Source of the DNA: a virus
Taxonomy: Duplodnaviria; Heunggongvirae; Uroviricota; Caudoviricetes
Virus record (IMG/VR): IMGVR_UViG_3300026560_000023
DNA length: 64,000 nt
Reading direction: 5' to 3' (one strand)
Part shown: positions 10,116 through 21,499 of the stretch, piece after piece
Numbering within the stretch: position 1 is the first letter of the stretch
Layout: each line of letters opens with the position of its first letter
The notes under the pieces: model-generated
Told to the model about the DNA's origin: nothing
The model's database searches: none
What the model saw: only the letters and a program-made list of their open reading frames with translations
Made by a program: the position numbers and the translations under genes

Positions 10116-10189
10116 GCCAGTAGAGCATGGGTGGTTCATGTGCTCCACTTGTAATGGAGATTACCGGGGTTCAAATCCCTGTACTGGCT
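10116..10189 (+). tRNA. tRNA-Thr (anticodon TGT)
   Basis: Acceptor GCCAGTA/TACTGGC; anticodon stem CTCCA/TGGAG with loop CTTGTAA; T-arm CGGGG-TTCAAAT-CCCTG. Confidence 0.75.
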
Positions 10190-10227
10190 TAGGTATATTT
10201 ATTATATATGGGACTAATAGATATGAC

Positions 10228-10455
10228 ATGAGTAAGAAAGAGTTTTTTAAAGCTATATCTTTTAGTGGTTCCTCTGTAGGTTCACTCATTTCTGGAACTC
10301 TATTCTTGTTTGGGACGTGGACGTGGGAGACGTCTCCATATATAAGTATATGGACTAAGAACCTTTTAGTGGACAGTATGGGAGTTCTATTTATCATATC
10401 AGGACTTGGACTGATGGCCGTCACTTTGTTAGAATCCTTTGGTGAAGAAGAATGA
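10228..10455 (+). CDS. Small membrane protein
   Basis: Internal ATG downstream of tRNA-Thr (the track ORF 10138 overlaps the tRNA); two hydrophobic helices. Confidence 0.4.
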   Translation: MSKKEFFKAISFSGSSVGSLISGTLFLFGTWTWETSPYISIWTKNLLVDSMGVLFIISGLGLMAVTLLESFGEEE

Positions 10456-10790
10456 AGGTAATAGTTGCTGGGACCCGTACTTACAACGATTTCCAACGAC
10501 TCGGTGAAATCATAGAGCAGTCCCCTTTCGAGTATGATAGTCTCATATGCGGGGGCGCGAATGGAGTAGATTCCATGGCTGTCAGGTACGCTAATCTCAA
10601 CGACGTAGAGATAGAAATAGTAGAAGCAGACTGGGACCTTGGTAATGGAGCCGGTCCTATACGAAATCAAAAGATGGCAAAGAAAGGTGATGCCCTTATC
10701 GCAATATGGGATGGAGAAAGTTCCGGTACGAGGGATATGATAGACAAAGCTCTCGCTGAAGGTCTGTCACTCTACGTCGTTCAGGTGTAG
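10452..10790 (+). CDS. SLOG-superfamily (DUF2493-like) Rossmann-fold protein
   Basis: 112 aa; VIVAGTRTY...ICGGANGVDSMA...AGPIRNQ...IAIWDGESSGT matches the phage-borne SLOG/DUF2493 pattern. Confidence 0.5.
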   Translation: MKVIVAGTRTYNDFQRLGEIIEQSPFEYDSLICGGANGVDSMAVRYANLNDVEIEIVEADWDLGNGAGPIRNQKMAKKGDALIAIWDGESSGTRDMIDKALAEGLSLYVVQV

Positions 10791-10810
10791 TTCGGTATAT
10801 TTATTACATA
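10791..10810 (+). promoter_or_regulatory. Conserved promoter motif TTCGGTATATTTATTACATA (TATA box about 24 nt upstream of the ATG at 10830)
   Basis: Member of the at least 14-copy (A/G)GTC(G/A)GTAT(A/C)TTTATTA family; spacing fits a leaderless mRNA. Confidence 0.5.
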
Positions 10811-10829
10811 CTCCCGAGATGGACAGAGT

Positions 10830-11441
10830 ATGGTAGAAATTGAAAGTCCAGAAGTGAGAGTGCTTCGGAACGGAGATTACCTTGCTATTGATGAGTACGG
10901 CATCCTCTCTGTCCGAGGCGAGGATAAGTTCGATGTTGTCGAGGAATTTTACGAGAAGTTCGATGACCTCGGTCACGGAGAGTATAGGTTCGCTGTTCCC
11001 CACGCTGGAGGAGACGCGGTCATCCTGTACGACGACTCTGACCCCTTCATCATCCTGTCTGACGAAGGAGCTTCCATCCTCTTTGATGGGGACGACGAAT
11101 CTTCCACGTTTGAGAATCCCAGTCCTACTGAGGACTTCTGGGATACTATCATGTATGCCAACAGTTACACGAGTCGATTGGCAGAGTATTATAATCACGC
11201 AGACGCGTATGGCGATGATGTAGCAAACGCCTTCGATACAAATCAGGCCAACCTCCCTCGTAGCCGAGTCCTTCCTGAGTATGAGTCTCGCATTGTCTTT
11301 GAGTTTGCGAGCAGGCTTCTTCGGAATCGTACGGAGCGTCTTAATGCCTATGATGACTTCCCCCGCATGAAGAAGTTCCTTCGGGAGGCTCACATCCAGA
11401 CGAAAGAAGACGTTCCGGAGTACCTTCGAGTGATGGAGTAG
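10830..11441 (+). CDS. Hypothetical acidic protein
   Basis: 203-aa ORF immediately downstream of the promoter motif. Confidence 0.5.
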   Translation: MVEIESPEVRVLRNGDYLAIDEYGILSVRGEDKFDVVEEFYEKFDDLGHGEYRFAVPHAGGDAVILYDDSDPFIILSDEGASILFDGDDESSTFENPSPTEDFWDTIMYANSYTSRLAEYYNHADAYGDDVANAFDTNQANLPRSRVLPEYESRIVFEFASRLLRNRTERLNAYDDFPRMKKFLREAHIQTKEDVPEYLRVME

Positions 11442-11460
11442 TCGGTATATTTATTATATA
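11441..11460 (+). promoter_or_regulatory. Conserved promoter motif GTCGGTATATTTATTATATA driving the tRNA cluster
   Basis: Same motif family; TATA box at 11450-11456. Confidence 0.5.
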
Positions 11461-11490
11461 CCCGATTGTTGAATAGGTGAGAACAAAAGC

Positions 11491-11566
11491 GCTCCGGGAG
11501 TCCCCGCTGGCGAGGGACGCAAGACTTTCAATCTTGAGGTCGCGGGTTCGATTCCCGTCCGGAGTA
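11491..11566 (+). tRNA. tRNA-Glu (anticodon TTC)
   Basis: Acceptor GCTCCGG/CCGGAGT; anticodon stem CAAGA/TCTTG with loop CTTTCAA; T-loop TTCGATT. Confidence 0.7.
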
Positions 11567-11771
11567 CTCCGAGGCTGTCCGTGGCCTCACAACAATGGTA
11601 GGAAACCCGCCGATAATGGGAGGAGGGGGTAACGCCCTGACCGAGGCTGAATGCGCAAGAGTAGACCGTAGACGAAATTGCCGCCGAGGAAAACGCGTGA
11701 CTGAGGTTGACGGCTCCGAAAGTAAGAAACCGTCCGCCGATTAGCCCACGGCGTTAGGAATACGGGCTCTC

Positions 11772-11846
11772 GCTCCCGTAGGGTAGCCCGGCCAATCCTT
11801 CTGCCTTCTCAGGGCAGAGACGTGGGTTCAAATCCCACCGGGAGCA
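11772..11846 (+). tRNA. tRNA-Glu (anticodon CTC)
   Basis: Acceptor GCTCCCG/CGGGAGC; anticodon stem CTGCC/GGCAG with loop TTCTCAG; T-arm GTGGG-TTCAAAT-CCCAC. Confidence 0.7.
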
Positions 11847-11850
11847 TCGT

Positions 11851-11921
11851 GGCATCGTGACAGAGTGGTTACGTGGGTGGCTGCAACCCATCTTACCCCG
11901 GTTCAAATCCGGGCGATGCCT
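11851..11921 (+). tRNA. tRNA-Cys (anticodon GCA), irregular D-arm
   Basis: Perfect acceptor GGCATCG/CGATGCC and T-arm CCCGG-TTCAAAT-CCGGG; anticodon loop CTGCAAC; the D-stem could not be paired cleanly. Confidence 0.55.
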
Positions 11922-11929
11922 TGCGGTTC

Positions 11930-20080: not shown

Positions 20081-20100
20081 TTCGGTATATTTATTAGATG
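20081..20100 (+). promoter_or_regulatory. Promoter motif TTCGGTATATTTATTAGATG
   Basis: The TATA box ends 28 nt before stem-enclosed element c. Confidence 0.45.
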
Positions 20101-20192
20101 CCACGCTAACGATAGAGTATAATGGTTCAGCTCCGTAAGCGACCTAAACGGGCTCTTGCTAATCGCAAGTAGATACTGAACCAATCCCTTTT

Positions 20193-20266
20193 GCCTACCG
20201 GTCCCGCTTGGTGCGGGAATCTGGCTGTTGACCAGAATGCGCGAGGTTCGACTCCTTGGGTGGGCG
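20193..20266 (+). tRNA. tRNA-Asn (anticodon GTT)
   Basis: Acceptor GCCTACC/GGTGGGC; D-arm TCCC/GGGA; anticodon stem TCTGG/CCAGA with loop CTGTTGA; T-arm CGAGG-TTCGACT-CCTTG. Confidence 0.7.
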
Positions 20267-20270
20267 TAGT

Positions 20271-20344
20271 GGGCCGGGAGCAAATCAAGGTGATGCGCCG
20301 GGCTTTTAACCCGGTTGTGGTGGGTTCGATTCCCACTCGGCCCT
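20271..20344 (+). tRNA. tRNA-Lys (anticodon TTT)
   Basis: Acceptor GGGCCGG/TCGGCCC; anticodon stem CCGGG/CCCGG with loop CTTTTAA; T-arm GTGGG-TTCGATT-CCCAC. Confidence 0.7.
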
Positions 20345-20405
20345 TTGGGACCGGAGCCTCACAATAGGCAGGATTAACCAATTTCGGAGGCGCAAGGTCC
20401 CTCGC

Positions 20406-20478
20406 GGGCCGGGAGCATATGAAGACATGCACGAGGCCCTTAACCTCACGATAGTGGGTGCAAATCCCACCCGGCCCT
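20406..20478 (+). tRNA. tRNA-Lys-like (anticodon CTT) with C33 and an atypical T-loop TGCAAAT; possibly degenerate
   Basis: Same architecture as the neighbouring tRNA-Lys (acceptor GGGCCGG/CCGGCCC); anticodon loop CCCTTAA; T-arm GTGGG-TGCAAAT-CCCAC. Confidence 0.45.
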
Positions 20479-20481
20479 TTA

Positions 20482-20886
20482 ATGCATCCGCAGAGAAAGG
20501 GTGACGCAACAGAGTCCAGGATACTCCATGAATTTCTCAGAAGAGAAATCCCCGTTTCTATTCCATTTGGAGACAATGAGAGATATGATATGGTTGTGGA
20601 GTCAGATGGAACTTTTGAACGGGTACAATGTAAGACTGGGAGATGCAAAAATGGATGTGTCATATTTGATTGTTCCAATGTTAATTTGCACGATGGAGAG
20701 AGACACGATTACCATGGAGATATAGAGTATTTTGCTGTTTATTGCGATTATACTGAAGAAGTTTACATGCTTCCAGTAGAAGAAACGGGTCGTTCTGAAA
20801 AGTCGCTTAGGGTAGAGGAACCAGAACAAACGTCGTCAAGAATAACATGGGCTGAAGATTACGAAATAGACACCTTTCTCCAGTAA
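20482..20886 (+). CDS. Hjc-like PD-(D/E)xK nuclease
   Basis: RKGDATESRILHEFLRRE ... ERYDMVVESDG.FERVQCKT parallels the archaeal Hjc block; start taken at 20482 to avoid the tRNA overlap of track ORF 20458. Confidence 0.5.
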   Translation: MHPQRKGDATESRILHEFLRREIPVSIPFGDNERYDMVVESDGTFERVQCKTGRCKNGCVIFDCSNVNLHDGERHDYHGDIEYFAVYCDYTEEVYMLPVEETGRSEKSLRVEEPEQTSSRITWAEDYEIDTFLQ

Positions 20887-20916
20887 CTCTATTATCTATG
20901 CGTGTGATATAGGAAT

Positions 20917-21150
20917 ATGACGGATGACCCTTTTTTATCCTGGTTGTATAAGCAAGAGCGCTCTATCTCTCGGGAGGAGATAAACGATAAGTGGCCCAGA
21001 GCGCAATTCAAGAAAATGATAGGGATTACAGCTACCTTCGGAGAGTATAAAGGAGAGGAGGTTAGTCTTATCCCTACGAGAGACTGGAGGATGCATTACA
21101 CCGGGATGCAGTCAGAGTTCGAAGAAATCACGGACATGGACGAGAGATAA
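20917..21150 (+). CDS. Hypothetical protein
   Basis: 77-aa ORF. Confidence 0.4.
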   Translation: MTDDPFLSWLYKQERSISREEINDKWPRAQFKKMIGITATFGEYKGEEVSLIPTRDWRMHYTGMQSEFEEITDMDER

Positions 21151-21189
21151 TCGCTACATTTAATATAGACTACTATATATTGATAGTAA

Positions 21190-21263
21190 GGACGCATGGT
21201 CGAGTCTGGTAAGACGTCGCCCTTACATGGCGAAGGCCGAAGGTTCAAATCCTTCTGTGTCCA
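21190..21263 (+). tRNA. tRNA-Val (anticodon TAC)
   Basis: Acceptor GGACGCA/TGTGTCC; anticodon stem TCGCC/GGCGA with loop CTTACAT; T-arm GAAGG-TTCAAAT-CCTTC. Confidence 0.65.
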
Positions 21264-21425
21264 TTGCCCGTGGCCATAGAGCGTTCCAAGCTCGAAGGCT
21301 CCATAGGATAAGAGTCCACCAAGCGCGAAATGCGTTGGGCCTATCTACGTGGAGCAGGCTGATGACGCCCCTACGATATTGGCCGGTTAACGCCGGTGGG
21401 GTAGAACGGAGTCGCGCCCGTGTCT

Positions 21426-21499
21426 CGGGACAGGACCCTCGTGGAAGGGGTACGTGGCTGTAGACCACGATGTTCCAGGTTCAAATCCTGGTTTCCCGA
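21426..21499 (+). tRNA. tRNA-Tyr (anticodon GTA) with archaeal-type C1
   Basis: Acceptor CGGGACA/TTTCCCG; D-arm ACCC/GGGT; anticodon stem CGTGG/CCACG with loop CTGTAGA; T-arm CCAGG-TTCAAAT-CCTGG. Confidence 0.65.

Follow-up and report, generated by a model that had tools for sequence, protein, structure and literature searches.

Clustered, co-oriented transfer RNA (tRNA) genes mixed with small open reading frames (ORFs) and homing nucleases, often together with RtcB or RNA repair genes, are carried by T5, KVP40-like vibriophages and some mycobacteriophages. Such tailed-phage clusters, in which deletion variants are common, have been proposed to compensate for codon usage and to make the phage resistant when tRNAs are depleted or cleaved. 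Among archaeal viruses the record is held by Halogranum tailed virus 1 (HGTV-1) with 34-36 tRNAs (PMC13532342, PMC8651126), 36 being the first annotated count and 34 the re-analysed one; this virus has a guanine plus cytosine (GC) content of 50% and a host that prefers G/C-ending codons, and it was credited with the record both in 2021 and in August 2026, at which later date a near-complete tRNA set was ascribed to no other archaeal virus (PMC13532342). Here we analyzed a stretch of 64,000 nucleotides (the window) of the uncultivated virus record IMGVR_UViG_3300026560_000023, in which positions 10116-21500 hold 30 tRNA genes, the second-largest set known from an archaeal virus and an HGTV-1-type island in a different virus family. 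With a probability of about 0.6, we interpret this locus as a real, selected tRNA island in a Druskaviridae-related siphovirus of halophiles, which mainly supplies decoders of A/T-rich codons in a GC-rich host. A near-complete tRNA set is thereby found in haloarchaeal tailed viruses of two unrelated families that share one architecture (low GC, thymidylate (TMP) kinase, RtcB and ORFs abutting tRNA genes), which points to tRNA islands as a strategy that recurs among viruses of hypersaline waters and may be exchanged between them.

ARAGORN with default settings called 29 tRNA genes in the whole window, all on the + strand and all within 10116-21500, and the 30th (Lys-CTT, 20406-20478) was matched at a relaxed threshold only (-ps90). 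In a whole-window search with the Rfam family RF00005 at its gathering score (29 bits), 27 of the 30 genes passed; laxer filters added Ser-GGA (46.1 bits) and Lys-CTT (40.1 bits), and Asn-GTT, which was outcompeted by a related family in the wide search, scored 37.0 bits in a narrow one. All 30 genes lie above the Rfam threshold (range 31.9-70.7 bits), the lowest scores being those of Gln-TTG (31.9), Tyr (32.6) and Ser-GCT (34.4). Neither tool found a tRNA gene elsewhere in the window, the ARAGORN intron search returned no convincing intron-containing tRNA, and no Rfam family other than tRNA was hit at E ≤ 1 in 9500-23000. Additional low-threshold ARAGORN calls were discarded, as they had implausible 'introns' of 241-296 nt and lay on the opposite strand. 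An earlier note on this DNA, in which cloverleaves had been parsed by hand, reported at least 30 tRNA genes for 20 amino acids in 11.4 kb, and the list of isotypes and anticodons obtained here is identical (Thr, Glu ×2, Cys, Phe, His, Gly, Val ×2, Trp, Gln ×2, two CAT tRNAs, Leu ×3, Ser ×3, Arg ×2, Ile, Asp, Ala, Pro, Asn, Lys ×2, and Tyr). Its observation that no CCA is encoded was confirmed as well, since none of the 30 genes is followed by this triplet, and its statement that archaeal viruses rarely have arrays of such size agrees with HGTV-1 still holding the record (PMC13532342, PMC8651126).

An A1:U72 initiator with three G:C pairs in the anticodon stem, a class I tRNA-Tyr with C1:G72 and an encoded G-1 in tRNA-His are archaeal rather than bacterial marks, and all of them are present. 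Reading of the sequence placed A1:U72 and G29-31:C39-41, the archaeal initiator signature, in the CAT tRNA at 14436, the encoded G-1 of tRNA-His at 12473 opposite C73, and a G3:U70 pair in tRNA-Ala, while the ARAGORN structure of tRNA-Tyr is of class I with C1:G72 and A73. The previously proposed His tRNA with G-1 and initiator Met were therefore recovered, and the proposed elongator Met only in part: the second CAT tRNA (16479-16551) is 72% identical both to Ile-GAT of the island and to the spliced, intron-bearing CAU tRNA of Haloglomus, a tie that leaves two options for this gene, which could be elongator Met or an AUA-reading Ile2. By anticodon, 20 of 20 amino acids are represented, the ambiguity of this gene being the caveat. 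The earlier note had also named low tRNA scores, or missing CCA ends together with absent promoters, as the signs of pseudogenes; the Rfam scores pass and promoter motifs stand upstream. Judged from their sequences, we regard all 30 as real tRNA genes and not pseudogenes, the transcription and processing of their RNAs being predicted.

The island resembles that of HGTV-1 in many respects. Both are blocks of approximately 11 kb in which small ORFs stand among co-oriented tRNA genes, and both genomes, with a GC content close to 50%, have near-complete sets of UNN anticodons (those with U in the first position), and encode RtcB and a TMP kinase (at the head of the HGTV-1 island, within the island here). 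In both, ORFs start 2-5 nt past tRNA 3' ends and no CCA is encoded, and local gene orders such as His-Gly, Leu-TAG followed by Leu-GAG, and Arg-TCG before Arg-TCT are common to them, as is one spacer RNA element (20347-20401 here); like Arg-TCG, this element was not found in 185,579 cellular genomes. Arg-TCG is 92% identical to its HGTV-1 counterpart, with compensatory changes in the acceptor stem, and a 33-nt core of this gene was absent from 185,579 species-representative genomes; Leu-TAA (82%) and Ser-GCT (76%) are also similar, while most pairs with the same anticodon share 47-76% identity. On the other side, HGTV-1 is a myovirus of another family (Halomagnusviridae), whereas the capsid here is that of a Druskaviridae-like siphovirus. 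HGTV-1 has 34-36 tRNAs against 30, and the window yielded neither an intron-containing tRNA nor the CCA-adding enzyme, LysRS and Rnl2 ligase of HGTV-1. The promoter motif described below is absent from the HGTV-1 island, and RtcB lies outside the island in HGTV-1 but inside it here, the RtcB of this virus being 41-44% identical to those of HGTV-1, HCTV-1, and HCTV-5. The two islands thus appear to share some virus-specific parts but no recently transferred block. Compared with the clusters of tailed bacteriophages, the tRNAs described here are of archaeal type (A1:U72 initiator, C1:G72 class I Tyr, encoded G-1) and the promoters of TATA type, and maturation would need archaeal enzymes.

The viral nature of the carrier, already assumed in the earlier note, is supported by PHROG assignments downstream of the island, where genes for the portal, the head maturation protease, the major head protein (capsid), and the tape measure were recognized. 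HVTV-1, HCTV-5, and HCTV-1, which are Haloarcula siphoviruses of the family Druskaviridae, have capsid proteins with 66-68% identity to that of the window. The window also encodes CobS-like (AAA_5) and CobT-like (VWA) proteins and QueF, and CobS/CobT together with QueF (7-deazaguanine pathway) are listed as Druskaviridae traits (PMC8651126). Mean GC of the window is 48% (local range 0.44-0.57), and with 20% Asp+Glu its proteins form an acidic proteome. The carrier is thus predicted to be an uncultivated Druskaviridae-related siphovirus of halophilic archaea. Likeness to the members of this family (HVTV-1, HCTV-5, HCTV-1, HCTV-16) extends to the capsid, the portal and protease families, CobS/CobT, QueF, and RtcB, and 9 window proteins match HCTV-5, of which the left 50 kb were compared; the ICTV-style demarcation of the family (Liu et al. 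2021) asks for roughly 20% or more shared proteins. However, the tRNA content differs, as only one annotated tRNA (Gln-TTG) is present in bases 1-50,000 of HCTV-5 and one (also Gln-TTG) in a 21-kb locus of HCTV-1 (L004), and these Druskaviridae genes are only 57-59% identical to Gln-TTG of this virus. HCTV-5 shows only 30-50% identity in its non-structural proteins, genes are ordered differently near RtcB, the hosts of Druskaviridae are Haloarcula, and the genomes of the family are near 57-58% GC in contrast to 48% here.

Searches for further relatives returned mostly the same virus. Megablast of the island against INPHARED gave a single match, to one HGTV-1 tRNA, hence this is not a deposited virus. 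IMG/VR searches with RtcB, the TMP kinase, the PD-(D/E)XK nuclease, and a 50-nt Arg-tRNA core retrieved only near-identical contigs and HGTV-1, with no moderately diverged sister island, and a metagenome scan with the 33-nt Arg core retrieved four further contigs, all of the same species. Among the 80 loci, mostly haloarchaeal, obtained from a genome scan with an RtcB alignment, none shared another window protein or offered a clue to a provirus or host.

The near-identical sequences allowed us to assess selection on the island. The strain set comprised 8 near-identical loci on 7 contigs (3 IMG/VR entries and 4 metagenome contigs of the Joint Genome Institute) with 99.4-99.8% identity, and the presence of such contigs in at least 7 assemblies indicates that the virus is abundant or widespread. 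Outside recombination junctions, 67 positions of the island are variable, of which a single one falls within the 1,851 tRNA positions counted, where 11.3 would be expected (binomial p = 6e-5); the tRNA genes are thus under purifying selection relative to the neighbouring DNA. The sole single-nucleotide polymorphism (SNP) in a tRNA gene (window position 18997) concerns position 8 of tRNA-Ala, which is C here, while T (U8, the canonical base) is found in four other loci from three contigs; the copy in this window may thus be slightly impaired.

Besides, three distinct structural variants were found within the island among the near-identical contigs (variant loci L002, L022, L039, L040, L041, and L042). 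Three independent assemblies carry a 599-bp deletion (14768-15366), by which two ORFs and one promoter are lost and a fusion gene arises from the 5' body of Leu-GAG and the 3' end of Leu-TAA. A larger deletion (about 14590-15395, L041) fuses Leu-TAG to Leu-TAA in the T loop, with three Leu tRNAs lost, and in a replacement (12545-12806, L042) the Gly, Val, and Trp tRNAs are gone. Deletion junctions lie in T-arm microhomology with 12-16 nt of exact identity, which points to recombination between tRNA genes; a collapse during assembly is unlikely, since the repeats are only 12-16 nt long and the same junction occurs in three independent assemblies. The island is therefore in flux, and strains can do without single tRNAs, at least for a short time; the resulting series of strains with 30, 28, and 27 tRNAs represents a natural test of which tRNAs can be dispensed with. 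Outside the island, one IMG/VR strain (L023) lacks 670 bp (29867-30536) inside an SPFH/Band 7 gene (29846-30733).

A 13-nt motif of TATA/BRE (B recognition element) type, GGTATATTTATTA, occurs in 20 copies in the window where 1.3 would be expected, and 10 of these, all on the + strand, lie in the island. Six cluster starts have the 5' end of their tRNA 37-47 nt past the start of the motif, two ORFs have their ATG at +36, and degenerate copies precede Thr, His, and Val-TAC with the tRNA at +37 to +41. This spacing would fit an archaeal TATA box with initiation approximately 25 nt downstream, giving near-leaderless tRNA and mRNA transcripts. Neighbouring tRNA genes are 0-8 nt apart within roughly a dozen clusters, and between the clusters stand small acidic ORFs (many with CxxC zinc ribbons) as well as genes for the TMP kinase, RtcB, a PD-(D/E)XK nuclease, and a SLOG-domain protein. 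ORFs that overlap the tRNA spacers were rejected as coding, their products being basic (isoelectric point (pI) 9.4-12) within an acidic proteome. In 8 cases an ORF starts 1-13 nt after the last tRNA of its cluster, with the ATG at +1 after Phe (12002), +2 after Leu-TAG (14602) and Ile (15647), +3 after Arg-TCT (16061), +4 after Lys-CTT (20482), +11 after the second CAT tRNA (16562, RtcB) and Ser-GCT (19310), and +12 after Leu-GAG (14787). As these start codons abut tRNA 3' ends, cleavage by RNase Z would leave mRNAs that are leaderless or have very short leaders.

The choice of anticodons is strongly non-uniform. All 13 UNN anticodons are present, compared with only 3 of the 13 that begin with C (CNN; hypergeometric probability for this asymmetry 5e-5), and those that begin with G (GNN) are complete for the two-codon boxes and Ile (8/8) and rare in the four-codon boxes (3/8). 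The virus has a third-position GC content (GC3) of 0.52, and AUA makes up 20% of its Ile codons. Under standard wobble rules, ten pyrimidine-ending (NNY) codons of Thr, Gly, Ala, Pro, and Arg, which account for ~13.7% of viral codons, have no viral decoder, hence the set is not autonomous, and together with the uncertain elongator Met this makes the earlier term 'near-complete decoding set' an overstatement. In order to compare anticodon supply with codon demand, as the earlier note had proposed, codon tables were compiled from the genome loci retrieved with RtcB (Haloarcula: 17 loci, 78,928 codons; Haloquadratum: 2 loci, 7,513 codons). With Haloarcula as a stand-in host, codons of the anticodons that are present have a median log2 virus/host ratio of +0.72 and those of absent ones of -0.80 (Mann-Whitney p = 1e-5), so that supply fits demand. 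With Haloquadratum, a stand-in represented by 2 loci, there is no relation (+0.04 vs. -0.27, p = 0.12).

Additional information is provided by the capsid gene (49894-51264), which has a GC3 of 0.75 and an A content at third positions (A3) of 0.06, while GC3 ranges from 0.33 to 0.70 in the other genes. Such a deviation would be expected if translation selects for G/C-ending codons that the host prefers. An inherited old composition seems unlikely, because at 66-68% protein identity to the Druskaviridae capsids the synonymous sites should be saturated. Compensation of codon usage in a GC-rich host, which the earlier note had proposed, is thus favoured by repertoire, codon demand, and capsid gene, that is, it is supported indirectly, and it is incomplete: the demand under the Haloarcula model, the UNN set, and the capsid GC3 speak for it, while the GNN tRNAs for C-ending codons of two-codon boxes are not explained by it.

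The following scenario would account for these data. Approximately ten short viral transcription units, in which tRNAs are mixed with small ORFs, the thymidylate kinase and RtcB, would be transcribed, and their tRNAs would be matured by the RNase P, RNase Z, and CCA-adding enzyme of the host and charged by host synthetases. In a GC-rich haloarchaeon (GC3 about 0.7-0.9), A/T-rich codons would be rare and probably poorly decoded, and the main effect of the island would be to provide decoders for A-ending and other A/T-rich codons, which the virus uses heavily. Abundant GNN tRNAs of the host would still read NNY in the five boxes (Thr, Gly, Ala, Pro, and Arg) that have no viral decoder for it, and RtcB would probably mend tRNAs cut during infection. 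The rule of all UNN and few CNN anticodons and the codon outlier of the capsid gene yield testable predictions on the host and on the codons that limit translation. Several points weigh against this scenario. The GC of the window (48%) equals that of Haloquadratum walsbyi, and other haloarchaea of lower GC exist (L089 53%, L091 52%); the host codon tables rest on crude ORF calls; few CNN anticodons are expected of any minimal tRNA set, as UNN can read NNG; the GNN tRNAs for Asp, Phe, Tyr, His, Asn, and Cys are unexplained, given that a GC-rich host uses their C-ending codons most; and some tRNAs are atypical (G37 in Asn, A1.G72 in Gln-TTG, a D stem of 3 bp in Lys-CTT, and C8 in Ala of this strain).

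These GNN tRNAs, together with an RtcB in the island, make tRNA replacement and repair a serious second function, which can coexist with compensation. As the primary role, a spare tRNA pool combined with religation by RtcB against host nucleases, toxins, or virus-induced shut-off, with codon bias being secondary, is a possibility to which we assign a rather low likelihood. There are reports that the tRNAs of bacteriophages act against defences that attack tRNA, and RtcB joins 2',3'-cyclic phosphate to 5'-OH ends. In this virus it sits in the middle of the island with its own promoter and is predicted, from motif and spacing, to be co-transcribed with a tRNA; it also adjoins tRNA clusters in four haloarchaeal genome loci, and coverage of all 20 amino acids, including readers of the C-ending codons that are commonest in a GC-rich host, is not what compensation predicts. 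RtcB and tRNAs occur together in HGTV-1, Hafunaviridae, and Druskaviridae (PMC8651126). However, a replacement set that leaves 10 NNY codons (~13.7%) without a viral tRNA is not self-sufficient, natural strains survive the loss of 2-3 tRNAs, no archaeal anticodon-nuclease defence was identified in this analysis, and both the UNN/CNN asymmetry and the GC3 of the capsid gene are predicted by compensation instead. A broader version, in which the island is an integrated module for RNA processing and anti-defence, with tRNAs as RNase P/Z punctuation and spacers as functional small RNAs, is doubtful. If the tRNAs did serve as punctuation, leaderless or short-leader mRNAs would be freed for RtcB, the nuclease, and many small zinc-ribbon proteins, and the stem-closed spacers and the tRNA-like element of such a module would be stable small RNAs, e.g., decoys for host systems that target tRNAs.

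The GC content of the virus could alternatively be matched to a low-GC, Haloquadratum-like host, in which case the island would be a general translational booster or host-range extender with no GC mismatch to fix. Composition (window GC 0.44-0.57 and GC3 0.52, compared with GC 0.45-0.49 and GC3 0.41-0.47 in the Haloquadratum loci), the abundant or widespread occurrence implied by at least 7 assemblies, and the usual assignment of low-GC viral contigs from salterns to Haloquadratum (PMC3316494, PMC12418951) agree with such a host. We nevertheless find it unlikely, because the repertoire is unrelated to codon demand under the Haloquadratum model (p = 0.12), the capsid gene, the most highly expressed one, departs in GC3 (0.75) and A3 (0.06) in the direction opposite to Haloquadratum usage, and the nearest cultured relatives infect Haloarcula; known tailed viruses of Haloquadratum have ~44% GC, and the paper describing them reports no tRNA array. 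Very improbable, finally, is an array of decaying or selfish DNA, i.e., pseudogenes or mobile tRNA cassettes spread by nucleases without benefit to the virus. Several low-scoring or atypical tRNAs, strain deletions that fuse or remove tRNA genes, the GIY-YIG and PD-(D/E)XK nucleases beside and inside the island, and a tRNA-like remnant at 19772-19915 would all be expected of it, yet only 1 of 67 variant positions falls into a tRNA gene (p = 6e-5), promoters stand at fixed spacing, 30 of 30 genes exceed the Rfam threshold, and the anticodon choice is non-random (UNN 13/13). The preferred reading thus remains a selected island that mainly decodes A/T-rich codons in a GC-rich host.

Along the island, in which all features are on the + strand and ARAGORN called every tRNA gene unless noted, the first gene is Thr-TGT (10116-10189, 48.6 bits) with a degenerate promoter copy (10078-10090) 38 nt upstream. 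Copies of the motif at 10192-10204 and 10794-10806 precede a leaderless ORF with its ATG at +36 and an ORF with its ATG (10830) at the same distance, and between them lies the gene for a SLOG/YspA-like (YAcAr) protein (10452-10790; Pfam PF10686, E = 1.5e-11; PHROG 289). The motif at 11444-11456 opens a cluster with Glu-TTC (11491-11567, 52.2 bits, motif start 47 nt upstream), a gene with 77% identity over 73 nt to Gln-TTG of the island (family D14), followed by Glu-CTC (11772-11846, 54.8 bits), Cys-GCA (11851-11921, 51.2 bits), and Phe-GAA (11930-12001, 52.4 bits), after which a second ATG lies at +13. His-GTG (12473-12547 including G-1, 49.7 bits) is followed by Gly-TCC (12551-12623, 59.4 bits), Val-GAC (12625-12698, 54.1 bits), and Trp-CCA (12699-12772, 52.7 bits), the three genes missing in variant L042, and then by Gln-CTG (13045-13117, 56.1 bits), Gln-TTG with its A1.G72 mismatch (13121-13196, 31.9 bits), and the thymidylate kinase gene (13458-14066; Pfam PF02223, E = 1.4e-31).

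The motif at 14399-14411 starts 37 nt upstream of the archaeal-type initiator Met-CAT (14436-14513, 55.3 bits), which is followed by Leu-TAG (14517-14600, 56.4 bits; the gene fused to Leu-TAA in L041) and Leu-GAG (14694-14775, 51.5 bits; fused to Leu-TAA in L002, L039, and L040). The next copy (15281-15293), which is the promoter lost with the 14768-15366 deletion, starts 39 nt before Leu-TAA (15320-15404, 40.2 bits) and heads a cluster with Ser-GGA (15407-15493, 46.1 bits with laxer filters), Arg-TCG (15495-15570, 70.7 bits), and Ile-GAT (15573-15645, 65.9 bits). Arg-TCT (15984-16058, 61.5 bits) has its own copy (15946-15958, start 38 nt upstream), and the copy at 16438-16450 starts 41 nt before the second CAT tRNA (16479-16551, 69.1 bits), behind which RtcB is encoded (16562-18085; Pfam PF01139, E = 7e-55) with GGAGGT ahead of its ATG. 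The RtcB residues D49, H51, C79, N185-H186, H213, H378, and H428-GAGR are invariant in the RtcB alignment, and we take them to be the metal ligands (Cys/His) and the motif of the His nucleophile.

Downstream of RtcB, the motif at 18754-18766 starts 37 nt before Asp-GTC (18791-18865, 48.1 bits) and precedes Ala-TGC (18990-19062, 57.2 bits, with G3:U70), Pro-TGG (19066-19139, 59.5 bits), and Ser-GCT (19210-19299, 34.4 bits). The copy at 19666-19678 lies before a tRNA-like element and Ser-TGA (19984-20075, 48.1 bits), and that at 20084-20096 before Asn-GTT (20192-20267, 37.0 bits in the narrow search), an atypical gene with GG at positions 8-9 in addition to G37, Lys-TTT (20271-20344, 52.6 bits), and Lys-CTT with its weak 3-bp D stem (20406-20478, 40.1 bits, ARAGORN relaxed). 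The gene for the PD-(D/E)XK nuclease (20482-20886; Pfam PF11645, E = 5.8e-37) begins 4 nt past Lys-CTT. Val-TAC (21190-21263, 69.1 bits), with a degenerate promoter copy (21153-21165) 37 nt upstream, and the class I Tyr-GTA (21426-21500, 32.6 bits with an alternative 5' alignment) complete the island.

Some of the spacers between tRNA genes are structured and carry no variants among the near-identical loci. The 70-nt spacer between Pro and Ser-GCT (19140-19209) has its ends joined by a perfect 10-bp stem (z-score -3.6; 0 of 200 shuffles fold as well) and would be freed as a small hairpin RNA upon tRNA processing. A stem-closed spacer RNA between Lys-TTT and Lys-CTT (20347-20401, + strand; z-score -2.7 for 20345-20405) is conserved with HGTV-1 (L001), where its homologue lies between Asp and Ala (14497-14562). 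The two copies have in common a 16-nt loop, AGGCAGGAUUAACCAA, and differ by one compensatory stem pair (U-A to A-U). This 16-mer has 25 matches in IMG/VR, and only in this virus and HGTV-1 does it stand in the context of a tRNA island; the other matches were dismissed, as their contexts are unrelated and chance matches are expected in 2.9 million contigs. The tRNA-like element (19772-19915, + strand) combines a 7-bp acceptor-like stem (GAAGGAA/TTCCTTC) and a perfect T arm (in families D9 and D13) with a long insertion in the D region and a GNRA-like hairpin in place of the anticodon arm, which is lacking. It was called by neither Rfam nor ARAGORN, has a fold z-score of -2.9 (19770-19917 vs. 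shuffled controls), and could be a decayed tRNA or a processing signal for RNase P/Z. The ORF that overlaps it encodes a basic product (pI 10.4) and is probably noncoding.

Further observations concern the surroundings of the island and its relatives. A variant of the motif, A/GGTATCTTTATTA, lies ahead of middle genes at 23650-23662, 25606-25618, 26970-26982, and 29795-29807; these genes have a GGAGG-like Shine-Dalgarno sequence upstream of their ATG, which follows the motif at +49 to +52, or at +84 in the case of the 23650 copy, in contrast to the island motif, whose features stand at +36 to +47 without a leader. The two motif types may represent two temporal or translational classes. The AT-rich region 9900-10115 separates leftward genes, which end at 9899, from rightward ones, which begin at 10116, and transcription as well as GC skew reverse here; divergent promoters are probable in this region, and a replication origin is possible. 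A GIY-YIG nuclease gene (9471-9899, - strand) adjoins the island and the PD-(D/E)XK nuclease gene (20482-20886, + strand) lies within it, and these nucleases, like the two LAGLIDADG nucleases in the HGTV-1 island, are possible agents of cassette mobility.

In genomes of Halorientalis, Halovenus, Halohasta, and Salinibaculum, tRNA clusters lie less than 10 kb from a viral-type RtcB (L074 16208-19859; L090 790-2213; L091 8808-9407; L116 15127-15272), and no other window protein had a match in these four loci. Their Gln-TTG (in L074 and L090) and Glu-TTC are 79-84% identical to those of this virus, and in the CAU tRNAs of L074 and L116 an initiator-like anticodon stem is combined with U1:A72. An uncultivated virus (L010, IMGVR_UViG_3300037067_027217) encodes an RtcB with 38% identity and at least 8 tRNAs nearby (173-7745), and an unrelated IMG/VR contig (L021, 8171-8245) carries a predicted ochre-suppressor tRNA (anticodon TTA). 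Finally, the portal protein of the window (34079-37567) is unusually long with 1162 aa; the portal family match covers only residues 27-573, and its C-terminal part has a weak PI3/PI4-kinase-like Pfam match (E = 2.7e-5, below the family cut-off).

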